64,000 nucleotides of DNA, taken from positions 21,107 to 85,106 of the forward strand of contig CAPRTS010000003.1 of the NCBI GenBank assembly GCA_948695535.1, written 5' to 3'. The DNA is from an uncultured Eubacteriales bacterium. Lineage in GTDB: Bacteria; Bacillota; Clostridia; Christensenellales; UBA1242. Of this stretch, positions 3 to 45,785 are shown in pieces. Positions within the stretch are counted from its first letter, which is position 1, and the number at the start of each line of letters is the position of its first letter. The notes under the pieces were generated by a model. It saw only the letters and a program-made list of their open reading frames with translations, had not been told where the DNA came from and ran no database searches. The position numbers were made by a program, and so were the translations under genes.

Positions 3-161
3 AACAAGGCGGGAGATATTAAAGATGTTTTAGTACCTTTAACGGCTGATAAGCGTTGTCAAGGTTGTTACATGGACGTACCCGCCGCAATCACCAGTAA
101 AATTTTGGCTGATGGTTGGGCAGTTTGCGAAGAATGCGGAAGGATAATTTATAAAGCATGA
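3..161 (+). CDS. 3' end of a zinc-ribbon protein (COG1579-like C-terminus), truncated by the window edge
   Basis: Frame 3 is open from the window edge. The tail RCQGCYMDVPAAITSKILADGWAVCEECGRIIYKA carries two CxxC pairs. Its TGA overlaps the next ATG (ATGA at 158-161). Confidence 0.45.
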   Translation, partial: NKAGDIKDVLVPLTADKRCQGCYMDVPAAITSKILADGWAVCEECGRIIYKA

Positions 162-1462
162 AAACTTTGGCGCGCTTTGCCGATTTTTACCAAACAATCA
201 ACGCAACCAGTTCGCGATTGGCAAAAGAAGCGATTTTGGCGGACTACCGTGATGACGACGCAATAAAAGAAATTTTGCAATTTTTATTTAATCCGTTTGT
301 GGTCACTGGCATTAGTGCTAAAAAATTGACTAAATCAGTTGCGCCTGCGGGGCAAACTTGTGACAGTTTACACGCTTTGTTAGTTTATTTTCAAACTCAC
401 AACACGGGGCGTGACGAAGATATTGCGGTACTAAAAGATTTCGCTAACCCTTTACCCCCCGAACAACAAGCTTTGGTTTATGGTCTAATTAAGAAAGATA
501 TAACCTTGGGGGCCAACGAAAAAACTTTGAATAAAGTTTTTGGGGCAGGGTTCATTCCGGTATTTAACGTAATGTTAGCGGAAAAGTATGGCGAAAACCG
601 CGATTACGTTGCGGGTAAAGAGTTCATTGTTACCGAAAAATTTGATGGTGTACGGTGTATGCTGATTTTTAATGACGCCGGTATGCCGACTTTTTTTTCG
701 CGAGCGGGGAAGTCGTTTGATGACATGGTTGAACTTAGCTCTGAGGTGCAACAATTGGATCACGATTTGGTGTATGACGGTGAGTTGTTACTGGGTACAG
801 ACCAAGAAATTGACAGTGCCGACCTTTACCGTATGACTGTGAAAGTTACCGCCAAGGACGGGGAGAAGCGGGGGCTGATTTACAATGTTTTTGACGTTTT
901 GCCGCGTCAAGACTTGTTAGCGGGATATTCGCCCATACCGTGTCGTGAACGCAAAGCAAATTTAAGTAAACAGCTATCAAAGTTGTCTTTACCACACATT
1001 AAAAACGTGCCCATCTTGTATCTTGGTGCTGAGGTGAGTAAAATTGATACAATTTGTGATGAATACACCAAAATGGGACGCGAAGGGGTAATGGTTAATT
1101 TAGCAGATGCACCTTACGAATGCAAACGCACCAAGAATTTATTGAAAGTTAAACGTTTTAATGCCGCCGACGTACGGGTGCTGGCTTGGGAAGAAGGGGC
1201 GGGAGCTAACCAAGGTAAGTTAGGTGCGGTTACTGTCGAATTTCTTGCTCCGGACGGGGAAAAATATCAGTGTAAGGTAGGTAGTGGCTTTGCCAAAGAA
1301 GAACGTGAGTATTTCTTTGCTAATCCATCGGCAATCGTTGGTCATATTATTGAAATAGGTTATTTTGAATTGTCTAAAAATCAAAACGATGCGGGGTATT
1401 CTTTGCGCTTTCCTACTTTTAAATGTTTACGTGACGACAAAGACGAAATTTCGATGCATTAA
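158..1462 (+). CDS. ATP-dependent DNA ligase
   Basis: 434-aa ORF with the adenylation motif I TEKFDGVR (KxDG). Also VYDGELL (motif III), EGVMVN (IV), LLKVKR (V) and a C-terminal OB-like GKLGAVTVEF...KVGSGF. Confidence 0.85.
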   Translation: MKTLARFADFYQTINATSSRLAKEAILADYRDDDAIKEILQFLFNPFVVTGISAKKLTKSVAPAGQTCDSLHALLVYFQTHNTGRDEDIAVLKDFANPLPPEQQALVYGLIKKDITLGANEKTLNKVFGAGFIPVFNVMLAEKYGENRDYVAGKEFIVTEKFDGVRCMLIFNDAGMPTFFSRAGKSFDDMVELSSEVQQLDHDLVYDGELLLGTDQEIDSADLYRMTVKVTAKDGEKRGLIYNVFDVLPRQDLLAGYSPIPCRERKANLSKQLSKLSLPHIKNVPILYLGAEVSKIDTICDEYTKMGREGVMVNLADAPYECKRTKNLLKVKRFNAADVRVLAWEEGAGANQGKLGAVTVEFLAPDGEKYQCKVGSGFAKEEREYFFANPSAIVGHIIEIGYFELSKNQNDAGYSLRFPTFKCLRDDKDEISMH

Positions 1463-18794: not shown

Positions 18795-19598
18795 ATGAAA
18801 AGTAAGGTTTTGTTGACCATGCTGATTATCCTGGTTGTCTTGGCAGGACTTGGCATTATGTGCGGTACCATTTTTGTAGTGCGTGATGTCGAAGTTGTTG
18901 ACGCCAATCCCGCGACAATTTTGTCGGCGGAAGAAAAAAACAACATTGTTACTAAAACTGAATTACATGGCAAAAATATTTTGTTCAGTATTAACCAAAA
19001 CAAGATTAAAGCCAATATTAAGGCTTGTGATCCAATGTATAAAGTCCACAGTATTAAAACTGAATTTCCTAACAAAGTGGTTATCAAAATTTCGCGGCGC
19101 GTACCAATTTATTGGGATCAGGTTAACAGCAAATATTATGATGCGGACATGTACGTTGTTAAGGAAATGGGGACAACGCCAACCGATTGCGTGGATATTA
19201 CGGGAGCCAATTTGCAATTAAAAGAAGACGTGAATTATGGTGACCTTGCTGTGGGTAAAACCAGTACCGATAACCGTAAAATTAACCAATTAAAACTTGT
19301 GGCGGCTTATTTCCCAACTTTAAGTGGGTTTACGCTTAAATATAATGACGATGCCGCACACGTCGGTGGCAAGTTAATTTGCTTACATCTTACCGTGGCT
19401 TATGGGGTGACTTTTGAACTTAAAACCATGGCTGACGATGACTTTGCGCACCTGTTGGCGTTTGTGAATACGGTTTATCAAAACGAAGCTAAACAAGCGA
19501 CCGGTAATTACAAAGCGATGTATCACCAGTCGGGCAAATGTACCGTTAAATACACCGATCTTGGCGGTAATGGAGAAAAAACTTATGTTGAAAAATAA
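18795..19598 (+). CDS. FtsQ/DivIB-like cell division protein (N-terminal TM plus POTRA)
   Basis: One N-terminal TM helix, then a POTRA-like VRDVEVVDANP...FPNKVVIKISRRVPI. Position after the mur genes. Confidence 0.6.
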   Translation: MKSKVLLTMLIILVVLAGLGIMCGTIFVVRDVEVVDANPATILSAEEKNNIVTKTELHGKNILFSINQNKIKANIKACDPMYKVHSIKTEFPNKVVIKISRRVPIYWDQVNSKYYDADMYVVKEMGTTPTDCVDITGANLQLKEDVNYGDLAVGKTSTDNRKINQLKLVAAYFPTLSGFTLKYNDDAAHVGGKLICLHLTVAYGVTFELKTMADDDFAHLLAFVNTVYQNEAKQATGNYKAMYHQSGKCTVKYTDLGGNGEKTYVEK

Positions 19599-20667
19599 TG
19601 TAGCAGTCATTTATTTTGACGATATGCAGATAGTGGGACGTATCGCGTCCGTGTCTTATGGTAAGGCGATTACGCCGTTGGTTACCATACGTAAGGATTA
19701 CAGCGGTATCATGGACAATGTTTTTACTGACCGCGAAGAGTTTAAGGCTACGTTCAGTGAAGTCTTAACCGAAATGGTGGCGGGGGTTAATCGTCTGCCG
19801 ACCGTACTTTATATTGGTGTGCCAAATCAATTCTGCCATGTGGAGACACAAAGCAGTGAAATTGAGTTTGACCGCATGACTAAGGTTAACAAGCACCATA
19901 TTCAAGCCTTGTGGGAAGATGCTCAATTTAATACCGAGCACCGCGAAGTGATCGCTAAAAAGGCTTTATATTTCAAATTAGAAGAATACGAAGATGTATT
20001 ATTAGATGCGATTGGTGTGGCAACGGTGGGTTTATCGATGGTCGCCAGCGTGATCTCGGTAAGTAATGAATTGCGCCCAGTAATCAATAGTACGGCCGTT
20101 AACCGCTTAGGTTTTACCGATTTTGCTTTTGTTAATTTGGCGGACGCAGAGTTATTTATGATCCCCGAAAAAGATCGTGACGCGGGCTGCAGTTTAATTC
20201 GTAGTGATTTCTTTTCGACTTCGGTGGCAAACATTATCGGTGATGGGGTAACGCAATTATCGCACTTTAATCTTGGCATGGGGCATTTAGTCAGTGAAAT
20301 TGCCGATAACTTTGGCTTGGATTACGAATCAGCACGACAATTGTTGTTACGGGCGACACCAACTTACGAAATGTTGTTGGAAGAAACATATACCGCCAAT
20401 GGTGATACCATTCCAGCGGGAATTTTTAACGAATTTATCGCCAAAAGAATTAACGAATTTGGTAACCGTTTGTCGAACTTTGATACCGCACGTATCGTTT
20501 ATTTGTCTGGTGGTAATTACGACCAGATTTACGGTATCAGCAGTGTTTTAGCCAATATATGCGAACGCCGTTTTTATCAATGTCAAGATGTTTTGAACGG
20601 AGCAACCAGTTATCCAGAAAATACATTAAACGCCTTGATTCGTTTCGTCGTGGCGAAAAATAGTTGA
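19585..20667 (+). CDS. FtsA-like actin-fold protein with degenerate nucleotide-binding motifs
   Basis: Collinear with the FtsA layout (IYFDD... for DIG, GCSLIRSDFFSTSV for DIGGGTT, VYLSGGN for TGG). The phosphate-binding Gly motifs are not conserved. Overlaps the FtsQ-like stop by 14 nt. Confidence 0.5.
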   Translation: MLKNNVAVIYFDDMQIVGRIASVSYGKAITPLVTIRKDYSGIMDNVFTDREEFKATFSEVLTEMVAGVNRLPTVLYIGVPNQFCHVETQSSEIEFDRMTKVNKHHIQALWEDAQFNTEHREVIAKKALYFKLEEYEDVLLDAIGVATVGLSMVASVISVSNELRPVINSTAVNRLGFTDFAFVNLADAELFMIPEKDRDAGCSLIRSDFFSTSVANIIGDGVTQLSHFNLGMGHLVSEIADNFGLDYESARQLLLRATPTYEMLLEETYTANGDTIPAGIFNEFIAKRINEFGNRLSNFDTARIVYLSGGNYDQIYGISSVLANICERRFYQCQDVLNGATSYPENTLNALIRFVVAKNS

Positions 20668-20742: not shown

Positions 20743-21702
20743 ATGTATGATACATTTGCACAAAGTGAAGCCGAATTCGCCTCAGCCTATTTGAGTTACA
20801 AATTGGAACGTGGTGGCGCCCCGTTTGCCAGCCAAGACGAATTGCTGGGGGCGGCTTTGGCCTTTGCCAACACTCATGGTTACGGGGAATGTTTCCCTAA
20901 ACTGAAAAAATTTATGTTTAACGATTTTGCGACCGTAACCACTCAGTTGCAAGATTTAATTAGTAATGAAAACGGGGACGCGAAAAAAGTTGGAGTAATT
21001 CGCTATGGTAATAAATTATTGCCGACTTATGATTTCCGCGATATTGGTGATGCCGCCAGTGCAGTACCATTTATGCATTATTTAAGTCATCATGAATTTC
21101 CTACGCCAAAAGAAGTCAACTATGGGGCAGAAATTAATCCGCAGTATCGTTTTAACGCGGCGGCAGGTGCCGAATATTTGACGGACTTTTTAGCGGATAA
21201 GTTTGCTGCCTACGAAACTGAACATGGTAAAGGCACAGCAACGACCGTGCAATTGAACAATGGTTACGCGAATAGTGGAAAAACATTACGCGTCCTGGAA
21301 AACAAGGCGTTCTTCCAAGGTTTTAACCAAGTAGCCACGCGTTTCTTGGCAGATTTGATGACGAATAACGATGGCTTTGCCCAAATTTCCAACCAAGCAG
21401 GTGGCAATTTGGCTTACAATAACTGGTGCCGTTTATTGGCCGGATTCCCCATTTTACAACGCTTTATACGGAATGTTGATGTTGATGGTAAGGAATTTAC
21501 TATGACGTTGACTCCGCAAAGTGTACGTGTGGAAGAAGTGCAATTTGCTCCGCATTTGGTGGCTGCTGAACAAGCCGACGGCTGTCGTCATACGCAAATT
21601 GACTTGTTAACAGGATTTAGCATGCCGGCTCCCAAGTTGCAACATTGCACAGTTAGTACTTCACATTTGGCTCGCGAAGTTAATGAACGGTTGCGACCGT
21701 AA
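20743..21702 (+). CDS. hypothetical protein, no recognisable family
   Basis: 319-aa ORF with a strong SD AAAGGAGA 8 nt upstream. Soluble-looking, no motif I can name. Confidence 0.7.
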   Translation: MYDTFAQSEAEFASAYLSYKLERGGAPFASQDELLGAALAFANTHGYGECFPKLKKFMFNDFATVTTQLQDLISNENGDAKKVGVIRYGNKLLPTYDFRDIGDAASAVPFMHYLSHHEFPTPKEVNYGAEINPQYRFNAAAGAEYLTDFLADKFAAYETEHGKGTATTVQLNNGYANSGKTLRVLENKAFFQGFNQVATRFLADLMTNNDGFAQISNQAGGNLAYNNWCRLLAGFPILQRFIRNVDVDGKEFTMTLTPQSVRVEEVQFAPHLVAAEQADGCRHTQIDLLTGFSMPAPKLQHCTVSTSHLAREVNERLRP

Positions 21703-21716
21703 ATTAAAAGGGTAAA

Positions 21717-22982
21717 ATGAAATTACGTTATTTAGTCGGTTTTGGTGACCCTTGGCAGTGCTTTGCTAAGTATTACGCTAAGGTTGGGCAAGTTACGCCC
21801 GTTTATGCTACGCGCTTGTTAGTGATGCTTAATGAACCTAAACAATTACTTTATCATTTACAACGTAACGACGATTCGGTCTTGGCACAACATATTGCCA
21901 ATATCTGCGACGAACGGTCACCTTTCATTAAAGATATCAAAAAAATTTTTTCGGCATCACAAATGGCAGTGTGGTGCAGTAGTTATCAACAGTTGTTACG
22001 AGAAGGAGTTAACTTTGAACGTTTTTTTAATCCGTTTTATACCTTCCAAAAAATTCAACGCCGCGATGGGCAACAATCTAGTATCGCTCGCGCTTATCAA
22101 GACCCACATGATTTCATGATGAATCAAAAACTATTGGACGCTTTACGACTGGATACTTGTCCGGCCACCACCAGCGAAGGACGCGCCTTGTGGACGTATA
22201 CTAAATTGTGTTCGGTGTTGAAATATGACGAAGGTTACATGTATCACGAATACCGTGACAATTTGAATGATTATCCTGACCGCAGTTTTGAATTAGTTGA
22301 ACAAGTAACCCCGGCAACGCCGATAACTTGCTATAATTTTTCGCGCATAGCCGTAAAATTATTGAACCAAATTCCTGGTATCAAGGCAACAATCATCGCA
22401 TTGGGCAAAAATCTTGGCCATTTTCGTTTTGGTTTTTATTCGGATAAAATGTCGGTTGACATAGAAGCTATTAATGCGGTGGGCAGTTTTAATGATTTGG
22501 CACGTGCCAAGTTGGGTATGCCCCCCAAAGGGATAAAGGCAATTTATGGTGAAAATTTAGTAAATCATTTATTGGCTGAGGTAGTGACACCGTGGCTCAA
22601 AACCCAACCGCAACCAATTACACAATATCTAACGTCACTGAAAAAAATTCCCAGTACGTCATCACCAACGCCGATCGATTTCCCAATGTTGCTGAAAACT
22701 TTGCAAGCCCACAATATTACGGGAACTGATGCTTTGCAAGTAATGTTAAACATGAATGTTAAGTTCGCGCAAGAAAGGTACGTTATGGCACGGGCGGGTA
22801 CAGTAACGAAACAGGGTGTGACGCCGTATTTGTTTGTGCGGCAAGGTGAAAAAATCATTGCAGTAGATTTAGAAAAAATGAACATTGAGCCTTGCGATGC
22901 TGATTTGTTACGCCGTTACTTAGCCAAAGATGCGGTAGTCTACGCTGACGATGATCACACTTTGGGCGACCTGTGCCGTTGA
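21717..22982 (+). CDS. hypothetical protein, no recognisable family
   Basis: 421-aa ORF 14 nt downstream of the previous gene and followed by an intrinsic terminator. No motif I can name. Confidence 0.7.
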   Translation: MKLRYLVGFGDPWQCFAKYYAKVGQVTPVYATRLLVMLNEPKQLLYHLQRNDDSVLAQHIANICDERSPFIKDIKKIFSASQMAVWCSSYQQLLREGVNFERFFNPFYTFQKIQRRDGQQSSIARAYQDPHDFMMNQKLLDALRLDTCPATTSEGRALWTYTKLCSVLKYDEGYMYHEYRDNLNDYPDRSFELVEQVTPATPITCYNFSRIAVKLLNQIPGIKATIIALGKNLGHFRFGFYSDKMSVDIEAINAVGSFNDLARAKLGMPPKGIKAIYGENLVNHLLAEVVTPWLKTQPQPITQYLTSLKKIPSTSSPTPIDFPMLLKTLQAHNITGTDALQVMLNMNVKFAQERYVMARAGTVTKQGVTPYLFVRQGEKIIAVDLEKMNIEPCDADLLRRYLAKDAVVYADDDHTLGDLCR

Positions 22983-23004: not shown

Positions 23005-23030
23005 AACTCACCAACAGGTGAGTTTTTTTA
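23005..23030 (+). terminator. rho-independent terminator
   Basis: Stem AACTCACC / GGTGAGTT with loop AACA, followed by a T-run, 23 nt after the 21717-22982 stop. Confidence 0.6.
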
Positions 23031-23058
23031 TCGTTAAAGACTTAAAAAATACTTGACA

Positions 23059-23075
23059 GGGGGGGGGGGGGGGGG
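23059..23075. repeat. G17 homopolymer tract
   Basis: 17 consecutive G directly abutting a TTGACA hexamer (23053-23058), 78 nt upstream of ATG 23153. Confidence 0.95.
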
Positions 23076-23152
23076 ATGTACCATTGTTAATAATTGCACA
23101 GGTAACCAAAACGGTAACGACGTGTGCAAAGAAAATAAAAGGATAAAAAACA

Positions 23153-24520
23153 ATGGCAAAATTGGGTAAACAATGGGGCGTAGTAATTGGGTGTTGGTGC
23201 GTGACATTGGTATTGGCGGTTACGGGGGTGTGCCTGGCGCTGACTATCCCCAGCAAAGCCGTGGACGATGAAACTTTTGTAAGGGTGGCAGAAATTTGGG
23301 AAAACCCAAATCACGTGCAAGAATTGTACAACGCGTTAACCGGTCAAAGCGGGGCGACTTTGGCTGACGTTAAAGCGTTAGTGCCGGACGCGGACAGTGC
23401 CTTTGACGCGGCGCAAATTCGTGCCAACAACAACGAAAAAAATATTATCTTAACTTTTGGTGGCCAAGAATGGCACGTGTGCTACTTATCCAATGATACC
23501 GACGGTAACCCGATTTTGACCTTGTGGGCGTTAAATAGTGTTGCGGAAAATCTTAGGCCTTTTATTGGTGGTGTCACTAACGACAGTGAAATGAGTAATA
23601 TTGCGGATCCGGAATGCCGGGCTAATTATAACACCTGGTATTCACGAGCCGTGGTCAATAACGGTGGACGCTATATTGGTGAACAGAAAAACGAAGATAC
23701 CGGTTTCTACGAACATTGTTGGCTAGAATACGAGCCGGTGACGGATTATGCGTTGCAAGAATTCTTACCTGGTGGTAAATACGCGACGGCCATCGTTACG
23801 CCGCAACACGTGGCTTGGCAAACCGAACGTCAGTCGAGTACTAATAGGCATAACTTAAATATTAAACTGGACGATAATTTATGGTTACCGCATACGTTGG
23901 AAATTGGCTACGATTACCAACTCCAATCCACTCCGTCGTACGGTAATTGGCGCTTGAATACGAATGGTAATGCCCAAGGTCCGGTGGCGGAGTTAAGTTT
24001 GCTTCGTGGTGCGTTTGGTTATGATTATGTTTATCAAGTACGTTATGTACAGAAAAATGGGAGCAGTTATTATACTCCGCTTAAATTTTCGCCTGCCAGT
24101 GTTGTCCCGGCCTTGCATTTGAATTTGAACGCGGACGAATTGCACGTACATGATTATCAAGAAACAAAAGTCGTCCCGGCCACGTGTATAGAACAAGGTT
24201 ACACGAAACATACTTGCATTTGCGGTGACAGTTACCAGAGTGATTTCACGGCCAAAATCGACCATGATTGGGGCGAATGGGTAACCGCACAAGAACCAAC
24301 CGCGACCAAGGAAGGCCTTGCTAAACGTCAATGTCAATACGGTTGCGGAACGACCGAACAGAAAATTATAGCGGCCTTGGGCGGTAGTGACGCCGACACC
24401 AACCACGATACAGTCAAAACTTGGGCAATTGTCGGTGGTGTATCCGGCGGCGTGTTAGTTTTAGGCGGTGGTACAATCAGTTGGCTATACATTATTCGCA
24501 AACGCAAGTCGCTTAAATAA
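23153..24520 (+). CDS. membrane-anchored extracytoplasmic protein (N-terminal signal/anchor, Cys-rich module, C-terminal TM anchor)
   Basis: N-terminal hydrophobic segment. FGGQEWHV...ILTLWAL and PALHLNL resemble the DUF6273-type fold. Cys-rich module ATCIEQGYTKHTCICG...HDWGEW...RQCQYGCG. C-terminal TM helix plus RKRKSLK tail. Confidence 0.75.
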   Translation: MAKLGKQWGVVIGCWCVTLVLAVTGVCLALTIPSKAVDDETFVRVAEIWENPNHVQELYNALTGQSGATLADVKALVPDADSAFDAAQIRANNNEKNIILTFGGQEWHVCYLSNDTDGNPILTLWALNSVAENLRPFIGGVTNDSEMSNIADPECRANYNTWYSRAVVNNGGRYIGEQKNEDTGFYEHCWLEYEPVTDYALQEFLPGGKYATAIVTPQHVAWQTERQSSTNRHNLNIKLDDNLWLPHTLEIGYDYQLQSTPSYGNWRLNTNGNAQGPVAELSLLRGAFGYDYVYQVRYVQKNGSSYYTPLKFSPASVVPALHLNLNADELHVHDYQETKVVPATCIEQGYTKHTCICGDSYQSDFTAKIDHDWGEWVTAQEPTATKEGLAKRQCQYGCGTTEQKIIAALGGSDADTNHDTVKTWAIVGGVSGGVLVLGGGTISWLYIIRKRKSLK

Positions 24521-25270: not shown

Positions 25271-25300
25271 TTGACAAGTATTTGGCCAGCAGTGTACAAT
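25271..25300 (+). promoter_or_regulatory. promoter, predicted leaderless transcript of 25309 gene
   Basis: TTGACA (25271-25276), N18, TACAAT (25295-25300), N8, ATG 25309. Confidence 0.5.
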
Positions 25301-25308
25301 AGGCGATT

Positions 25309-25722
25309 ATGAAAAAATTGAGTAAAGTTTTACCATTTACCAATGGTTTGAAAAAATATGCACCCGAAATAATTGGTATGGCTGCGGGCGCGGTCTTGGG
25401 CACCGTGGGAGTTAATCTTTATACCGATGTTATTCACCCTGCATCGGGAAAAGTAGTGCCGGCGGAAACGGAAATTAAATTAACCAAAGCCCAAAAGCAA
25501 GAAGTGTTATACGTTTTACGCGAATTACGCGGTTTGTTAGACGATCAGCAAGGCGACGATTCGTTATGGGTTAATACGCAGGTAGCAACTAAATTAAGTC
25601 TTACCTTAGGTGAACCAATTAGTACCCGTAATACTGCCGAATTATTAGCCATTATTGATGCCGCGATTGCCGAACTGTACACGGCCGCAACCCAAACTGC
25701 TGATAACGGCCTTAAACGATAA
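25309..25722 (+). CDS. hypothetical small membrane protein
   Basis: 137 aa with one N-terminal TM segment (IIGMAAGAVLGTVGVNLY). Lies upstream of the ABC exporter gene. Confidence 0.6.
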   Translation: MKKLSKVLPFTNGLKKYAPEIIGMAAGAVLGTVGVNLYTDVIHPASGKVVPAETEIKLTKAQKQEVLYVLRELRGLLDDQQGDDSLWVNTQVATKLSLTLGEPISTRNTAELLAIIDAAIAELYTAATQTADNGLKR

Positions 25723-27730: not shown

Positions 27731-27805
27731 TGGTACTCCCAGCGAGAGTCGAACTCGCGATTACACCGTGAGAGGGTGTCGTCTTAACCGCTTGACCATG
27801 GGAGC
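27731..27805 (-). tRNA. tRNA-Glu (anticodon CTC)
   Basis: Reverse complement: GCTCCCATGGTCAAGCGGTTAAGACGACACCCTCTCACGGTGTAATCGCGAGTTCGACTCTCGCTGGGAGTACCA. It folds as a cloverleaf with anticodon stem ACACC/GGTGT, loop CTCTCAC and an encoded CCA. Confidence 0.85.
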
Positions 27806-30412: not shown

Positions 30413-33400
30413 ATGTTGACTATGGGGGGAACACCAAAGAAGGTAGCAATGTTGCGAGCATTGTGGCTCTGCTTGGCAGTGTTTTTTTCCCTGTTAGCTG
30501 TAACCGCAACCAGCAACTTATTGGGTACTGTCGCTCGTGAAGAGCGTGGGGGGACATTGGAACCCAGTAATAACGTATATGAAGATCCGGACTTATACAC
30601 CGAATGGATTAACTTAGTTTCGGGTGAAGAATATGGGTTTTCGAACCATCCGTTTGGCACCAAAACAATTTACATTATGGACGAAGGCGAGTTAGCCAAT
30701 CTTAATCGCGCTTTAACCATGAACGTCAACGATTACTCGGGGTATACATTTATTTTAGCAAGCGACCTTGATATGTCGAAAAAATATCCTTCCAGTGAAA
30801 GTAAAGAACCAGTCCCTGCCGTATGGACACCAATTAACACCACGCCGGGAACTAACACCGGAATTATTTTTGATGGTAATGGGAAGAAAATCAGTAACTT
30901 GTTAATGATTATGAATGACGACGAAACTGTAACTGACGGAGTTAGGGCAAACAATGGTTTCGGTTTCTTTGGTAATTTAACGGGCTGCACGGTACGCAAT
31001 GTAACGTTTGAAAATCCGGTCATTAAATATACATATGTTGGGGACAGCAAAACCTCAACTGACCCAGAACGTCCTACTGCTCCCGTGCCAGTGGGAATTG
31101 GTGTGGTCGCGGGAATCGCGGAAAATGCTTACGTGAACAAGGTGAATATTGTTAACCCACAAATAACGGTGACAACCAATAATGCTAATGGTCACAGTCT
31201 TTACGTGGGTGGTGTGGTTGGCAAAATGGTTTACGACGCTTATGATGCGACGCCGTTGTTGCAAAGCGTAACCAACCCTGATGACCCTACTGACGTTGAG
31301 CACCGTTGGGGGGTTGACACGGTGACGGTAACTGCGGGCGAAGGTACTAAATTTGACGTAACGGTGACCCCGGGGTCAGAGACTTATAATCAAACTTACG
31401 GTATGGCAACCTTTGGTTATATTGGTGGAGTAGTCGGTTACAACAATTCGGCCAAGGTTATTAACAGCAAGGTGCAAGGGCTAAATATTAATCCGCAAAT
31501 TCCGGAAAATGCTTTCGGTAATTATTACGTTGGTGGGTTGGCCGGTTTCTCTATGCTGCGTGTTAAAACCTTAAACGATGTGGTCTTGGCCGGGGTAATT
31601 AACAACGTAATTATCGACAGCACGGTCACCAGCGGTAATGTTAACACTGATAGTATTGCTAGGACTGTTTATTCCGTGCATTCGGGGGCTTTGGTTGGTC
31701 AAATTTATGATAGTTGGGTGTACAATAATATCGCCATTAACGATGACAAATCTTTGCCGCTGTATGGCTCGTTTTGGAATCGTAAGTATAATATTTTTTA
31801 TGACTCTTGTTTGGGTTACTTCGATTATGAAAGGCTTTTAGGTAGTGATTATTTCTTGATCGGTGAAGAAACTGTGCTGGCGGGGGAAACTGTTACAACG
31901 CTTGATTTTAGTCGGTGTAAACCACAGTTGTATGGTTATTATTGGGTGTGTCGTCATCACACAGTAAAAGACGATAAAGTTATTTTCCCTTATCTAAGTG
32001 ACAATTCTGAAAACGAAAATTTTGAACTTTACGCCAACCAGTATAACTTTCAAATGACTAAGCAGGAATTTGCAACTTTCAAAAACGGGGCAGTGTTTGG
32101 CAAGTTTGCTGATTTTGAAAATAAGGACGGAAATTTCTTCGAAATCGGTAAACAAAGAGTGTTGTACGAAGCTCCTTACCGCGGTACGGCAGAACCCGGT
32201 AAGGGGGACTATAACGACCAAACAAGAATACGAAAAGCGGTTAACGAATTGCGAGTATGGAAAGTGGATGAGAACGGCGAACCCGGATTTGGCGATAATT
32301 TGGGTTACGATTACGATGTTGTTTTTCATGCCAATGGCGAGAATATGAAACACGACTTTGGCGATGCGGGGCGTGCCAATGCCGGGTGGGTGCAAAAGGG
32401 CGAATATGAATACATGGATACAATTTTGACCCAAAAAATTAAAAAATATAAGTATAAAGAAAAAATTGAATCTTTAACTGGCCAAGAAATGCCGACTTGC
32501 GAAGGTTGGAAATTTGATGGTTGGTATGCTGATGCCGATTGCCAAGATCGTGACGAAAGTGAGCAGTTTAATTTTGCTACTGCCGAGATGAAAGGAAGCA
32601 CCATTAATCTTTATGCGAAGTGGGTAGTTAAAACGTACGATGTGGAATATTACCTAGACGAAAATGATGCGGAGCCTTATCGTGTTGACCACGGAGTTGT
32701 TTATGGCAGTTATATAATGAAACCGGCCGATCCTGAATTACCAGCAACTGAACAGTTTTTAGGTAAGTCGTTTGCTGGCTATTGGTATTACTTAGAAGCT
32801 TATTACGAATACGATGAAAATGGAAACCCAGTGGGGGAACCGGAGTACCGCGAAGCTGGTGAATGGGTGTTTGATAATGTTGAGAATTACAGCCCGATGC
32901 CGGGACAAGTCTTGAAATTATACGCAGGTATTCAAGACGATTTCGTAATCTTACGGGAAGTGATGGAATCAACGGAGGTTCAATTTGCGTTAACTCACCA
33001 AGATTGTTATACTGCGGATAGTTTCAAAATTTTTCAAACCGCTTATGATAACGGGCGGGCTGTTATGGAAGCGTCAAGCAATTTACCGGATGACCAAACA
33101 GTTAGTCAAGTTGTTGCTACCATACGGGACACCTTGGCAGCCTTAGTCGTTAACATTGAAGCTTTTAAGGCCTTGCCACCTTTTGACGAAAACGTTGACC
33201 AAAATCGTTATCCATTCTTGTATCAAGATTACGATGCTGCGAGTCCCGATTTTCACCCTTATCGTGACTATACTGATGCTAAACGTGCAGCCTTGAATTA
33301 TTTGAATGTGGAAATTGCCAATCCGGATATGTTGCATAATGTGGAACGCTACTTATATATCCGCGATACTTTGCTGAGTAAATACAATAATTTGGCGTTT

Positions 33401-33865
33401 AACCCTAATCCTAATTTGGGAATGAATACAGAATTGGTTAACGCCGTCAAGCAGGGTTATACACAAATTATGCAAACGATTGATGACATAAACCCTGATG
33501 ATTATACAAAACAAAGTTGGGATAATGTTAACTTTAACTTGGTAATTGACGATTTTAAAAAAACTTTCAAAAGTGATTACCAAAATCCCTATATTGCTGA
33601 TATGAAAAAGGCGATCGATAATTACCATGCAGCCAAGGCACAGTTGGTACGTAACCAAGGTAATACTGACGTGCCTAATGCAACAGTAGGTAAAAAATCG
33701 GGAGTTGCTTCGCAAATAATAATTGGCGTAATGGTTTTCTTACTGGCGATTGGCGGTGTCAGTGGTTACATTGGCTTTGATCTATACATGAACAAGAAGG
33801 TTAAACCCAAAAAAGAACAAGCCGAAAAGGCTGAACGTGCGGCCGCCGATGATACTTACATCTAA
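30413..33865 (+). CDS. large cell-surface protein with GLUG-type motifs, a Listeria/Bacteroides B-repeat and a C-terminal membrane anchor
   Basis: Signal peptide. Repeated GGVVG/GGLAG segments (YVGGVVGKM, YIGGVVGYNN, YVGGLAGFS). B-repeat CEGWKFDGWYADADC...INLYAKW. C-terminal TM helix plus a K/E-rich tail. Confidence 0.8.
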   Translation: MLTMGGTPKKVAMLRALWLCLAVFFSLLAVTATSNLLGTVAREERGGTLEPSNNVYEDPDLYTEWINLVSGEEYGFSNHPFGTKTIYIMDEGELANLNRALTMNVNDYSGYTFILASDLDMSKKYPSSESKEPVPAVWTPINTTPGTNTGIIFDGNGKKISNLLMIMNDDETVTDGVRANNGFGFFGNLTGCTVRNVTFENPVIKYTYVGDSKTSTDPERPTAPVPVGIGVVAGIAENAYVNKVNIVNPQITVTTNNANGHSLYVGGVVGKMVYDAYDATPLLQSVTNPDDPTDVEHRWGVDTVTVTAGEGTKFDVTVTPGSETYNQTYGMATFGYIGGVVGYNNSAKVINSKVQGLNINPQIPENAFGNYYVGGLAGFSMLRVKTLNDVVLAGVINNVIIDSTVTSGNVNTDSIARTVYSVHSGALVGQIYDSWVYNNIAINDDKSLPLYGSFWNRKYNIFYDSCLGYFDYERLLGSDYFLIGEETVLAGETVTTLDFSRCKPQLYGYYWVCRHHTVKDDKVIFPYLSDNSENENFELYANQYNFQMTKQEFATFKNGAVFGKFADFENKDGNFFEIGKQRVLYEAPYRGTAEPGKGDYNDQTRIRKAVNELRVWKVDENGEPGFGDNLGYDYDVVFHANGENMKHDFGDAGRANAGWVQKGEYEYMDTILTQKIKKYKYKEKIESLTGQEMPTCEGWKFDGWYADADCQDRDESEQFNFATAEMKGSTINLYAKWVVKTYDVEYYLDENDAEPYRVDHGVVYGSYIMKPADPELPATEQFLGKSFAGYWYYLEAYYEYDENGNPVGEPEYREAGEWVFDNVENYSPMPGQVLKLYAGIQDDFVILREVMESTEVQFALTHQDCYTADSFKIFQTAYDNGRAVMEASSNLPDDQTVSQVVATIRDTLAALVVNIEAFKALPPFDENVDQNRYPFLYQDYDAASPDFHPYRDYTDAKRAALNYLNVEIANPDMLHNVERYLYIRDTLLSKYNNLAFNPNPNLGMNTELVNAVKQGYTQIMQTIDDINPDDYTKQSWDNVNFNLVIDDFKKTFKSDYQNPYIADMKKAIDNYHAAKAQLVRNQGNTDVPNATVGKKSGVASQIIIGVMVFLLAIGGVSGYIGFDLYMNKKVKPKKEQAEKAERAAADDTYI

Positions 33866-41459: not shown

Positions 41460-44400
41460 ATGGAGAAATTTTTATTAAATCCTTTAACGAACGAAAATGG
41501 ACAGCCAAACGCTTGGGCATGGGCCTTATGCATTATTGCGGCAGTAATTGTTTTTGCTACCATTATGGTGTTGATTTGGCAATTATATGGTCGTTATAAA
41601 AAACGTCGTCAAGCCCAAGAAATTGCTAATGCACAACCGGTGACGGAAACACCAGAAGTTGAACCCGGTCAATTTGAAAAGCGCATTGATGATACGGAAT
41701 TGCAATATTATGATCAAGATAAGGCCAAGGAAGAGGAAGCCCGAATTCAGGCTTTGTTGGTTGAAGAAGAAAAACAACGTAAGGATTTGGAAGCCAAAGA
41801 ACGTGAATTAGAATTAAAACAACAACGCGAAGAAGAAGAACGTTTAGAACGCGAACGGTTGTCTGCGGAACGTGAAGCCGAAAAAGAAAGACAACGTGAA
41901 GAAAAGGAACGGGCTAAAGCGGACAAAGAAGCCGCTAAACAAGCCCGCAAAAACCGTAATAAAGAAGCAAATTTCTTCGCTGATTATGACGACGAAGAAA
42001 CGGCCGATGCTTTCAATGCTCGTGATGATGAACCAGTAGTGAATTTCTGGGCAGATGCGCAAAACGACAATAAGCCGGCAGAAAATAAGGTTGTAGAACC
42101 CGTAGTCGCAACTGACCCACGCTTAGAACAAGTTTTGGCGGAATTAGAAAATCAAAAACAGGCGGAACAAGACAAGTTTGCCAGTTTAATGGCTGAATTG
42201 GAAAACCAAAAGCAAGAAACTGCACGTTTGAAAGACGAATTGGACGCTAAACAAAAAGCTGACGATGCGATTGCGCAAGCAAAAAAAGAAATGGAACAAA
42301 TGATTAAAGATAGCCAAACGCAAATGGATAACATCGCTGAACAAAAGAATATTAAAAACGCTGATCAAGATTTATTAAACGAAATTAAAAACATTATGGC
42401 GGCGGAACGTGAGTCGCAAGAAAAACGCTTGCGTGAACAAGAAAACAGTTTGGCGGCCGTTTTGGCGGCTATGGAAGACGAACGTCGTGCCAAAGAAGAA
42501 AATCAACGTAATGCGCAACAAGAAGCCCAAAAGGAAGATGAATTTGTTAAATTGCAAAACCAATACCAAGACGCGATTGCGCAAATGCAAGACAAATTTC
42601 AACAAATGTTGAATGACGCGAACGCTCAAAAAATTGATAACGCTGCCAGTGTGGAAAACGCTTACCAAGCCCAATTGGAACGTGAACGTGCCGAAACGGC
42701 AACCTTAATTGAACAAATGCAACGCGAAGTTGACAAAATGAACGCTGAGCGTGAAGCCGAACGTCGCGAATACGAAGCCAAGCAAAAAGAGCTTAACGCG
42801 GCAATGGAAGATGCTTTACGCACGCAAAGAGTTGAATTTGATCAAGCACAACAACAAGCCAATAACCAAAATTTAGAGAAGATTTTGCAAGATATGGAAA
42901 ACCAACGTGCGCAAGAACAAGAAATGTTTGCCAATATTTTGAACGAAATTGCGGCTGGCCGCGAAGATACTAATCAAGCCAAGGCGGCTATGGAACAAAT
43001 GGTTCGGGAAAGCGAAGCACGCATTGATAAATTGGAACAACAAACGGCTCGTGGTTTGGATGAAGAAAGTTTGGCGGCTTTGCGTGAAGTACTGGCGGCA
43101 GAACGTGCAGATCAGGAAAAATTGTTAGCACAATACCAAGAAGAAGTAGCCACTTTGCGTGAAACAATTATTGCTAACCAAAATGATAATCCAAATGGTG
43201 ATGGTAACCAAATGGTTTATACGGCTCGTGACCCCGAGGCTGACGCGGAAATGATGGCACAAATTGAAGCCATGCAAAACGAAATTCGTAAAATGTCGGC
43301 GGATAAGGAAGCCGAAAAGGACGCTTATGAACAACGTCATGCCGAATTATTGGACGCTTTGAACCGTACCATTGTTACGGGGGAAAACGCACAAACGCAG
43401 GAAACGCAATTAGCAGAACAAGAAAGTGTCGATCGTATTTTGCAAGATATTGAAGCCCAAAAACAAATGGAACAAGAACGTTTTGCTAATATTATGAATG
43501 AACTGGCGGAAAGTCGCGAAGACACTAAGAAAGCGCAAGAAGCGATGCAACAACTGATTCAAGAAAGCAGTGACTTGATTAACCAATTAAGTAGTAAAAA
43601 CGAAGTGCGGGGTGTTGACGACGAAACCTTAGCGGCCTTAAAGGATGTTTTGGCGGCGGAACGTGAGGCCCAAGAAAAGCGCTTGGCGGAAAACGAAGAA
43701 AACTTACGCATGGTGGTGGCGGCGATTGAAGAACAGCAACAATATTTGACCGAAGAGCAAAATAAGCAGGCTGAATACGAAAAAACTATTGCTGACTTAC
43801 GCGCTAAGTACGAAGCCGAAATGGCGGAACTACGTAATGATTTATCGGCTAAAACCGCCGAAGTAGATAACTTGCAACAAGAATTGGCCAAAGATGATGA
43901 GGTTGCGGAAATTGCCGATAACAATAACACGGAAACCGTCACAGTAACTGATGGTGATGCTGACGATAATGATGATACTGCTAAGCAAGTGGAATATAAT
44001 GAGGAGGACGAAGTGATTAACGAAGAAGTTTTGGCGCAGTTAGCCAAGATGCAAGAGGAAATCGAAAAATTGGAAAAGGAACGTGAAGCCGAACGTGCCG
44101 AATTTGAAAGAAAGTATGACGAATTAAACAAAGTGCTGGACGACTCCTTAAAAGTGCAACGACTGGAAATGGAACTGGCCAAAGAAAAAGAAGTCAATGA
44201 ATTAAAAATGCAACAGGCCTTGGACGCGCAACGTGCGGAAATCGAAGCCGCCAAAGAGAAAGAATTAGCGGAACAACGTCGGGCTTTGGTTGAAGAAAAA
44301 GGTAACGATAACGAACAAACTAATGCCATCTTGGCGGAATTTAAGGACGAAATTAATCGTCAATACGAAGATTTCTTGGCTTTATTAAACAACAAAAAGG

Positions 44401-45785
44401 CCGAAGAAGAAAACGCTAAGAATGAATACGATGCTTTATTGGCTCAGTCTGGTGATGACAACAAACAAGATATTCAAGAAATGTTGGAACAATTACGTGA
44501 AGAACGCAAGGCTGCTCGTGAAGAAGCCCAAGCATTGCGTGAGGAATTAGAAGCTCAACGGATTGAAAGCGAAGCTAAATTGATGAAACAATTGTCCGAA
44601 GTTAAAGAAGGTTTGGTCAACGAATTATCCAGCGAATTGGAAATTAAAGAAAAATTTGACTCTTTGGAACAAGAAGTCGAAAACCATAACCAAGAAAAAT
44701 TAAAACAGAATGAAGCCGAAGAAGCCCGTATTAAACAAGAGTACGAAGAATACAAACAAAAAATTGCGGACGAAGTAATGGCTTTGGAAGAAAAGAACGC
44801 GGCTTTACAAGCGGAGTTAGAAAAAACTCGCCAAGAACAAGCCCAAGGCGATGAAGCCAAGCAAGCGGAATACGAAGAAAACGAAAGACGTTTGCGCGAG
44901 AAATATATGCAATTGCGTAGCGAACTGATGAAAGAAGCCCAACAAGTTTCTAAACAAACTGAGGAAATCGAAGCGGAAAAACGTGCGATTGAAGACAAGA
45001 AACGCGATTTGGAAGAAGAAAAAACTCGTTTGCAAAACGAAGTTGAAATGCTGAAACAACAAGTTTTGGAAATTAAAACTCAAGATGATGGCCAAGGTGA
45101 ACAAGTAACGGAAGAACAATTGGCTTTGGTGCGCGAACAACTGGAAACTGAGTATAAGAACCGCGAAAAAGAAATGTTGGATAAATTGGAACAAGAAAAA
45201 CAAGCCTTAGTGGCGCGTGAAGCCCAATTAAAATTAAAAGAAACCAATATTGAACGCGAAGAAGAACGCATCAAGGAACAATCTATGGCGGTCACCACGA
45301 TGATTACTAATCGCGAATACACTAAGGAAGAACGCGAGCGTTTGGTTCTGGATTACACTTTGAAATTGCAAGATTTGGAAGAACGTTTGAAACAAAACGA
45401 GAAGGCCTTGCGTGAAAATAATCGTGAATTCATCCCCTTGCGCCGTATTAAAAATACCTTAGATCGTGATATGCGCTTGTTACGTAAACGCGAAGCCATA
45501 GTTGCCAAGCAAGAAGTGTTGGTATATGGTGTTAACAACATCTCGACAGTTGATCCCGAAAAAATTAAAAAGTTGGAACAAGATATTAAGCAATTAACTG
45601 GTTTGCAACAAAGTGTAGCGAACTGCGAAACGATCTTGAATAAAAACAAAGACCGTTATCCAACTTTGGAAAATTTGGATAAAGTATTACGAGCCCAAAA
45701 CGAACAAATTCGTAACGATTTGGAAGAAGTCAAGGCAGCCATGGCCATGTTTGGCGATAACGGGGAAAACGGCGAACAAAAATAA
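41460..45785 (+). CDS. giant (1441 aa) membrane-anchored coiled-coil protein, unknown family
   Basis: Uninterrupted 4326-nt ORF. One N-terminal TM helix (WAWALCIIAAVIVFATIMVLIWQLY) followed by RYKKRRQ. About 1390 aa are E/K/Q/A/R-rich with three D/N-rich linkers. No NTPase or enzyme motifs seen. Confidence 0.85.
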   Translation: MEKFLLNPLTNENGQPNAWAWALCIIAAVIVFATIMVLIWQLYGRYKKRRQAQEIANAQPVTETPEVEPGQFEKRIDDTELQYYDQDKAKEEEARIQALLVEEEKQRKDLEAKERELELKQQREEEERLERERLSAEREAEKERQREEKERAKADKEAAKQARKNRNKEANFFADYDDEETADAFNARDDEPVVNFWADAQNDNKPAENKVVEPVVATDPRLEQVLAELENQKQAEQDKFASLMAELENQKQETARLKDELDAKQKADDAIAQAKKEMEQMIKDSQTQMDNIAEQKNIKNADQDLLNEIKNIMAAERESQEKRLREQENSLAAVLAAMEDERRAKEENQRNAQQEAQKEDEFVKLQNQYQDAIAQMQDKFQQMLNDANAQKIDNAASVENAYQAQLERERAETATLIEQMQREVDKMNAEREAERREYEAKQKELNAAMEDALRTQRVEFDQAQQQANNQNLEKILQDMENQRAQEQEMFANILNEIAAGREDTNQAKAAMEQMVRESEARIDKLEQQTARGLDEESLAALREVLAAERADQEKLLAQYQEEVATLRETIIANQNDNPNGDGNQMVYTARDPEADAEMMAQIEAMQNEIRKMSADKEAEKDAYEQRHAELLDALNRTIVTGENAQTQETQLAEQESVDRILQDIEAQKQMEQERFANIMNELAESREDTKKAQEAMQQLIQESSDLINQLSSKNEVRGVDDETLAALKDVLAAEREAQEKRLAENEENLRMVVAAIEEQQQYLTEEQNKQAEYEKTIADLRAKYEAEMAELRNDLSAKTAEVDNLQQELAKDDEVAEIADNNNTETVTVTDGDADDNDDTAKQVEYNEEDEVINEEVLAQLAKMQEEIEKLEKEREAERAEFERKYDELNKVLDDSLKVQRLEMELAKEKEVNELKMQQALDAQRAEIEAAKEKELAEQRRALVEEKGNDNEQTNAILAEFKDEINRQYEDFLALLNNKKAEEENAKNEYDALLAQSGDDNKQDIQEMLEQLREERKAAREEAQALREELEAQRIESEAKLMKQLSEVKEGLVNELSSELEIKEKFDSLEQEVENHNQEKLKQNEAEEARIKQEYEEYKQKIADEVMALEEKNAALQAELEKTRQEQAQGDEAKQAEYEENERRLREKYMQLRSELMKEAQQVSKQTEEIEAEKRAIEDKKRDLEEEKTRLQNEVEMLKQQVLEIKTQDDGQGEQVTEEQLALVREQLETEYKNREKEMLDKLEQEKQALVAREAQLKLKETNIEREEERIKEQSMAVTTMITNREYTKEERERLVLDYTLKLQDLEERLKQNEKALRENNREFIPLRRIKNTLDRDMRLLRKREAIVAKQEVLVYGVNNISTVDPEKIKKLEQDIKQLTGLQQSVANCETILNKNKDRYPTLENLDKVLRAQNEQIRNDLEEVKAAMAMFGDNGENGEQK
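42123..44175 (+). repeat. three divergent tandem super-repeats (modules A and B) inside the coiled-coil CDS
   Basis: Module A starts at 42123, 42873 and 43428 (L-Q-D-hydrophobic-E-x-Q+..EQ..FA.. then L.A/E..+..AAER..QEK.L). Module B starts at 42708, 43263 and 44040 (MQ.E+.K...+EAE+..+E.+..EL). Confidence 0.7.

Follow-up and report, generated by a model that had tools for sequence, protein, structure and literature searches.

The run of 17 consecutive G residues preceding the gene for a 455-aa surface protein in the 64-kb stretch of DNA that we analyzed (referred to below as the window) is probably a slippage-driven promoter-spacer phase switch of this gene. Two sets of observations lead us to this reading: the length of the tract differs between strains, and six of the seven genes of the related family that we examined carry a repeat at their 5' side. 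The anatomy of the site, its polymorphism in length, the fit of the G14 allele to the consensus, and the repeats of homologous genes are seen directly in the sequences; the transcriptional start site, an effect of tract length on transcription, and the reversibility of the switch within a clone are inferred. The mechanism proposed is most likely classical promoter-spacer SSR phase variation, a known kind of process; those of its features that can be recognized in silico, i.e., the length of the repeat, its position between consensus hexamers, its polymorphism between strains, and a surface protein as the product, are all found at this locus.

The features of the locus, and the repeats of the homologous genes discussed further below, are compiled in Table 1. 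Read along the sequence, AAAAAATAC is followed by TTGACA, G17, and ATGTACCATTGTTAATAATTGC. At the level of consensus motifs, the repeat occupies the interval between a -35 and a -10 region (TTGACA-(G)n-A-TG-TACCAT). TACCAT matches TATAAT at four of its six positions, and the TG in front of it is directly adjacent rather than in the canonical TGn arrangement. A consensus scan calls TTGACA-17-TACCAT (10/12) as a promoter in the G14 allele present in assembly GCA_948651415.1 (L002), and it calls no promoter at the TTGACA-polyG site of the G17 window. The 3-nt offset between the tract and TACCAT lies within the 3-9 nt range of the 28 TTGACA-polyG extended -10 promoters found among the matches listed from other genomes, and at most promoter-class loci among these matches, TTGACA-polyG is preceded by A/T-rich DNA similar to that of the window. 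TTGACA-18-TACAAT (11/12), which precedes the gene at 25309 in the same window, indicates that the host uses TTGACA-type consensus promoters. The stem-loop in the leader has a z score of -3.6 when compared with shuffled sequences; the stem-loop, or the direct repeat in its loop, could act as an mRNA stabilizer or as a site for a regulator. No Rfam family was detected in or near this region, the sole Rfam match of the window being a tRNA-Glu (27731-27805).

Table 1. Features of the G-tract locus and of repeats in homologous genes (positions are those of the window unless another locus is named).
Feature	Locus	Position	Strand	Remark
Intrinsic terminator of upstream gene	window	23005..23031	+	stem-loop 23005-23024, then T run
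A/T-rich stretch CGTTAAAGACTTAAAAAATAC	window	23032..23052	+	abuts -35 upstream; UP-element-like; putative function
-35 hexamer TTGACA	window	23053..23058	+	perfect consensus; called as -35 of the 10/12 promoter in the G14 allele
G17 homopolymer	window	23059..23075	+	putative hypermutable promoter spacer
Proposed -10, TG + TACCAT	window	23077..23084 (hexamer 23079-23084)	+	spacer = tract length + 3
Extended -10-like TGTTAATAAT	window	23085..23094	+	possible secondary promoter, -35-independent
Leader stem-loop TTGCACA...TGTGCAA	window	23094..23129	+	loop holds GGTAAC-N6-GGTAAC; MFE -14.6 kcal/mol
Shine-Dalgarno core AGGA	window	23140..23143	+	9 nt upstream of ATG; from sequence
Surface-protein gene, 455 aa	window	23153..24520	+	signal peptide/anchor, ectodomain, Cys-rich module, TM anchor, basic tail
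Terminator, then TTGACA-C-G10-CAAATA-TGATAAAAT	L146 (P0022)	342-372		promoter spacer of 20 to extended -10
ATG, then G11 in coding sequence	L145 (P0007)	367-410		out of frame as assembled
G10 where signal-peptide coding region ends	L147/L148 (P0023)	561-657		out of frame as assembled
ATG, then (GCAA)10	L136, L140-143 (P0002 group)	L136 2918-2972		out of frame as assembled
ATG, then (GCAA)13	L137 (P0003)	6-80		out of frame as assembled
No repeat	L144 (P0004)

Much of what the first-pass annotation of this DNA had described is borne out. Its coordinates for TTGACA and for the 17 G residues are exact, and it was right in regarding the tract as the only long homopolymer in the window, in seeing an insulated transcription unit behind a terminator located just upstream (an 8-bp stem with 4 GC pairs, a 4-nt loop, and a T-rich tail, in agreement with the consensus), and in predicting a membrane-anchored extracytoplasmic product (hydrophobic segments at residues 7-37 and 430-448, followed by the basic tail RKRKSLK). 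It had also paired TTGACA with the -10-like element TGTTAATAAT. The position given for this element, 58 nt before the ATG at 23153, is correct; the pairing fails, since it would require a spacer of 29-30 nt with the G17 tract and one of 26-27 nt with the G14 tract, so that TGTTAATAAT does not qualify as the partner of TTGACA at any tract length observed. As a second -10-like element, TGTTAATAAT could give rise to transcription that is independent of the tract.

We propose that the gene is expressed from a promoter of the sigma-A/sigma-70 type in which the G tract would make up almost the whole spacer, the order being an A/T-rich stretch, TTGACA, (G)n, A, and TG-TACCAT. Slipped-strand mispairing at replication would add or remove G residues. 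Tracts of G13 to G15, which correspond to spacers of 16-18 nt, would allow transcription of the gene, and longer or shorter tracts would result in weak or no transcription. The G17 tract of the window, with its 20-nt spacer, is predicted to represent a weak or OFF state, and under this model most of the alleles observed (spacers of 19-21 nt) would be OFF as well. The outcome would be a heritable, reversible, and stochastic ON/OFF or graded expression of the membrane-anchored surface protein.

A tract of this kind stands out from the remainder of the window. The 64 kb contain 38 runs of five G residues and five runs of six, none with a length of 7-16, and a single one of 17; runs of C do not exceed 6 nt and those of A or T do not exceed 8 nt. 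Given that G accounts for 0.242 of the bases, about 2e-6 runs of 17 or more G residues are expected in 64 kb. Apart from the tract, no simple-sequence repeat exceeded 3.8 copies in a TRF analysis of the window. With G17 here and G14-G17 elsewhere, the tract lies in the size range of hypermutable homopolymers (roughly 8-9 nt or more).

Alleles of the tract were found via exact-protein look-ups with the 455-aa protein and the 421-aa protein encoded upstream. The locus was recovered in this way from about 14 independent samples or assemblies, including ERR3199xxx, SRR25641218/9, SRR29817831, SRR32195098, GCA_948651415.1, and GCA_948536715.1. Between flanks that are 99.5-100% identical, these assemblies possess tracts of G14, G15, G16, and G17, values that call for caution because short-read assemblies are unreliable in the consensus length that they give for a long poly-G tract. 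The locus is covered from side to side by two contigs, namely that of ERR3199695 (G17), which equals the window over 7368 nt with no differences, and that of GCA_948651415.1 (G14). Most contigs break at the tract (about 11 samples): those from the left side stop in it or just past it (G15, G16, G16+, G17, and G17), and those from the right side begin just past it. One contig end (L003) is garbled and starts with GGCCCCCCCCCACG. The breaks are compatible with heterogeneity of tract length within the samples, and equally with sequencing errors in homopolymers. A flank-anchored scan of JGI metagenomes for further alleles gave no matches. As the tract is located internally, has unique sequence on both sides, and recurs across independent assemblies, it is a genuine feature of the genome.

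The alleles observed give spacers of 17, 19, 20, 20, 20, and 21 nt, and optimal spacing is seen in one assembly only, that with the G14 tract. Two types of junction occur among the strains, Gn-ATG and Gn-AATG; the junction Gn-A-ATGTACC was reached from both sides in SRR-series strains that are 99.5-99.7% identical to the window. Over 7371 aligned nt, the G14 assembly deviates from the window at only two sites, both of which are situated within 23053-23094: the tract differs by 3 nt in length, and a T (23090) is replaced by an A inside TTAATAAT, a SNP that falls in the TGTTAATAAT element. All of the divergence between these two sequences is thus concentrated in the promoter. As far as sequence comparison goes, the suggestion of a spacing switch that the first-pass annotation had made is upheld by tract lengths of G14 to G17 among strains and MAGs with conserved flanks, by divergence confined to the promoter, and by the repeats in six of the seven family genes.

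These seven genes comprise that of the window and six further members of the family. In six of the seven, we found a slippery repeat at the promoter or at the 5' end of the coding region: a poly-G promoter spacer in two genes, poly-G in the 5' coding region in two, and (GCAA)n in the 5' coding region in another two. The (GCAA)n repeats belong to the two nearest homologs, and the poly-G repeats of L145, L146, and L147/L148 to more distant ones. Like the window, L146 displays a terminator followed by TTGACA-polyG. A simulated change by one repeat unit restores a long ORF in all four coding-region cases, and the restored products open with a proper signal peptide, in which a charged N-terminus leads into a hydrophobic core, and continue with the conserved beginning of the ectodomain ('...FV.V.EIY.N..NVQ.LYNA'). 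The (GCAA)n locus contains 10 units in five of five assemblies, with no variation in length among them. Repeats of this type are otherwise nearly absent from the DNA retrieved for the family. Three repeat types distributed over six of seven genes are, to judge from the sequences, the hallmark of a family of phase-variable genes; this spread of repeats across the family constitutes the strongest argument that the G17 tract of the window is functional. Because the start codons of the (GCAA)n homologs have been called downstream of an out-of-frame repeat, their annotated N-termini are probably wrong; L136 and L137, the two nearest homologs, are cases in point.

An exact scan of species-representative genomes for TTGACA followed by G12 yielded at least 119 loci; among the matches listed, none overlaps the window or comes from its species, and two classes, promoters and coding-region tracts, can be discerned. 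In the first class, among the matches listed, an A/T-rich stretch is followed by TTGACA, G12-26, and a -10 region a few bases further on. An extended -10 element (TGn plus a TAnnnT-like hexamer with at least 4/6 matches) starts 3-9 nt past the tract at 28 of the 104 analyzable sites (27%) among the matches listed, compared with 1.7% at control positions, for which other positions in the same loci were used. Lipoproteins, type IV pilin-like proteins, and large secreted proteins account for most products of the first ORFs downstream of these promoters, and where paralogous promoters share their flanks, the tracts are unequal, e.g., G13, G16, and G19 (both among the matches listed). Single genomes can possess at least 6-8 TTGACA-polyG promoters, many of them ahead of prepilin-like genes, with tracts of G13 to G19 in near-identical flanks; examples are the Bacilli MAG Lapin-002 bin26 (L033, L035, L047, L053, L079, L089) and the MAG E02 bin238 (L023, L040, L043, L119, L128, L135). 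Two cultured bacteria are represented as well, Anaerocaecibacter muris (CLA-AA-M11) with TTGACA-G14-TATGTTATACT ahead of a lipoprotein gene (L030, 2983-3017, minus strand) and Helicobacter labacensis with TTGACA-G16-TGATATAAT (L052). Some sites come from records that bear the label of a complete MAG chromosome; the isolate name of one such record contains 'hicanu'. The spacers of the first class have their mode at 19 nt, and many measure 19-20 nt, in a distribution from which the G>=12 query excludes short spacers. We considered this mode as a sign of a longer spacer optimum and rejected it, since the query drops the short side. Among the matches listed, TTGACA-polyG-extended -10 is thus a recurrent layout before genes for pilin-like proteins, lipoproteins, and other secreted proteins in many host-associated lineages.

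The second class consists of TTGACA-G12-13 tracts in type IV pilin-like genes, where they lie within the part that encodes the signal peptide (...G12...FTMAEILLSL); its hosts are a Fusobacterium MAG with at least 11 loci and Melainabacteria/Gastranaerophilales MAGs (L018, L019, L031, L044, L051, L059, L061, L087, L105, L121, L122, L125-127, L132). To judge from the sequences, these genes seem to form a large pilin family with phase variation at the level of translation.

It is unlikely, in our judgment, that the G tract is a neutral mutational hotspot and that transcription proceeds with little effect of tract length from the -35-independent extended -10 element TGTTAATAAT (23085-94). This element is plausible as an extended -10-like sequence, TACCAT is weak as a -10 hexamer, and most alleles place TACCAT at a non-optimal distance from TTGACA. 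However, a neutral G17 tract would be very improbable in 64 kb that contain no other G or C run of more than 6 nt; the tract is inserted exactly between a perfect -35 region and a -10-like hexamer, and a 5' repeat of its own is found in six of the seven family genes. Moreover, the hexamer within TGTTAATAAT lacks one of two canonical features, the T at position 6 or the TGn register, and at 12-13 nt from the tract the element falls outside the 3-9 nt of the promoter class among the matches listed.

Among the matches listed, unrelated genomes share one succession of elements (A/T-rich stretch, TTGACA, Gn, extended -10 region, and RBS), for which the spacer model is the simplest explanation. We regard it as distinctly improbable that the tract regulates the gene in some other manner, be it as a G-quadruplex, as A-like DNA, as a protein-binding site, or as part of the 5' UTR of a transcript from an upstream promoter. 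Tracts of G15 or longer can in principle fold into an intramolecular quadruplex, and the many promoter-class spacers of 19-20 nt, instead of 17 nt, among the matches listed could be a hint of an unusual geometry; the spacer distribution, lacking its short side as a result of the G>=12 query, is nevertheless no evidence of a shifted optimum. The ~28 nt between the terminator and TTGACA do not contain a convincing promoter. A sequencing or assembly artefact, such as the poly-G of two-color chemistry that the first-pass annotation had raised, is an almost negligible prospect despite the contig breaks and the garbled contig end, given that contigs of independent samples, which represent at least five run series and two NCBI MAGs, approach the internal, uniquely flanked tract from either side and that similar TTGACA-polyG sites are found in complete-labelled MAG chromosomes and in cultured isolates.

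As a putative promoter-spacer switch, the G tract has its closest documented counterpart in tp0126 of Treponema pallidum, which encodes an OmpW homolog. In this gene, the -35 and -10 regions are separated by poly-G, transcription is optimal at a spacing of 17 nt, and the length of the tract varies within and between isolates (PMC7864442). The likeness, which tp0126 shares with tprE/G/J and tprL, consists in a poly-G tract within the sigma-70-type promoter of a surface-protein gene; the differences are that the T. pallidum tracts comprise about 8-12 G residues, whereas those described here comprise 14-17 and form nearly the entire spacer, and that T. pallidum is a pathogen from another phylum, whereas we deal with a gut commensal known from sequence alone. 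In Neisseria meningitidis, slippage in the spacer homopolymers of porA (poly-G) and opc (poly-C) leads to high, intermediate, or no expression. These genes resemble that of the window in possessing a homopolymer in the -35/-10 spacer of a gene for an outer-surface protein, but they belong to a Gram-negative bacterium, their tracts of 9-14 nt form only part of the spacer, and they have been tested experimentally. Promoter homopolymers likewise set the spacing of promoter or activator elements ahead of genes for variable surface proteins in Mycoplasma hyorhinis (vlp; poly-A) and Bordetella (fim; poly-C). Both employ a base other than G, and the Bordetella system needs the activator BvgA, for which there is no implied equivalent here. 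SSR-mediated transcriptional phase variation in Neisseria has been reviewed (PMC5953494).

A translational route of switching is known from the tetranucleotide repeats of the Haemophilus influenzae type and from Bifidobacterium breve, where slippage of an intragenic G tract switches pili (PMC9187656). This is the route used by homologs of the window protein, whose (GCAA)10-13 or G10-11 repeats are located just past the start and are one unit out of frame; the gene in the window, in contrast, has no intragenic repeat, and its own repeat is predicted to act on transcription. As far as our searches of the literature show, neither switches of this kind in uncultured gut Clostridia, nor convergent repeats across a lectin-like family, nor the breadth of the TTGACA-polyG layout have been described.

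Studies of phase variation in gut commensals have dealt mainly with invertible promoters, in Bacteroides and in a small number of cultured Firmicutes. The locus analyzed here would represent a pathogen-style contingency locus in uncultured Clostridia, within a protein family marked by convergent gain of repeats. Its lectin-like surface proteins are probably under fluctuating selection exerted by IgA, phage, or host glycans. In MAGs, the 5' ends of genes of this family are probably misannotated in a systematic manner, with starts called past out-of-frame repeats, and the breaking of contigs at such tracts fragments MAGs at the very host-interaction loci of most interest. It is quite possible, although we advance this only tentatively, that uncultured host-associated bacteria possess a large and unsurveyed layer of contingency loci built on repeats, of which the switch in the window is one instance. 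Such a layer may consist, on the one hand, of several poly-G-spacer promoters per genome (G12-26) before genes for pilin-like proteins, lipoproteins, and large secreted proteins; among the matches listed, poly-G promoters are present in Clostridia, RF39-like Bacilli, Kiritimatiellia, Lentisphaerae, an 'Alphaproteobacteria' MAG, and A. muris. On the other hand, it may include the DUF6273-related lectin-like family, which would have gained three repeat solutions independently. If true, slippage switches would rank beside invertible promoters among the main routes by which gut commensals vary their surface. The cultured strains of A. muris, a relative of the host, and H. labacensis are possible experimental systems for poly-G-spacer promoters.

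With its N-terminal signal or anchor segment and its C-terminal TM anchor, the 455-aa protein is predicted to be surface-located, and its relatives are multi-domain surface proteins. It is restricted to its lineage; the nearest homologs are 33% and 28% identical. No Pfam match was obtained for it even at E<=1, nor an NCBIfam-type match. Of 15 relatives in an alignment (26-31% identity), seven match PF19789 (DUF6273), with a best E value of 1.2e-7. By this alignment, the ectodomain is related to DUF6273-bearing proteins, and we do not assign the 455-aa protein itself to DUF6273. According to a published analysis, DUF6273 is C-type-lectin-like and is often targeted by diversity-generating retroelements (PMC10743442). 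An AlphaFold2 model of the 455-aa protein was poor (mean pLDDT of 52), and a Foldseek search of the PDB with this poor model returned nothing at E<=0.001; a profile search of PDB sequences with the protein gave no matches. A Cys-rich module of ~80 aa (residues ~330-412; window 24140-24390), which matches no Pfam model, is present in 13,960 library proteins (E<=0.001), typically giant surface proteins; the best matches have up to 44 stretches per protein and lengths of up to 7583 aa.

The next gene downstream converges from the minus strand, which makes the 455-aa gene a monocistronic unit. Upstream, genes for a 319-aa and a 421-aa protein without Pfam matches occupy 20743-22982, between an ORF at 19561-20667 and the terminator, and both are kept beside the locus in all assemblies. 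The wider context is a dcw cluster with murE, mraY, murD, and unannotated ORFs at the ftsQ/ftsA positions; the MurE protein of the window has 69% identity with its counterpart in an 'Eubacteriales bacterium' MAG and 42-49% with those of Christensenellaceae MAGs. By these MurE neighbors, the host belongs to an uncultured lineage of Eubacteriales/Clostridia and is a distant relative of Christensenellaceae. Two very large ORFs, at 30413-33865 (1150 aa) and 41460-45785 (1441 aa), gave no NCBIfam match at E<=1e-5. At several loci (window 25271-25311; L136 2881-2920; L145 about 340-369), -10 boxes end 6-8 nt before the ATG with no visible Shine-Dalgarno sequence, an arrangement which suggests that leaderless mRNAs are common in the lineage of the host. 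The plus strand of the window is rich in G (15472 G vs. 11968 C) and carries nearly all of the long ORFs, a bias compatible with a leading-strand segment of a Bacillota-type chromosome.
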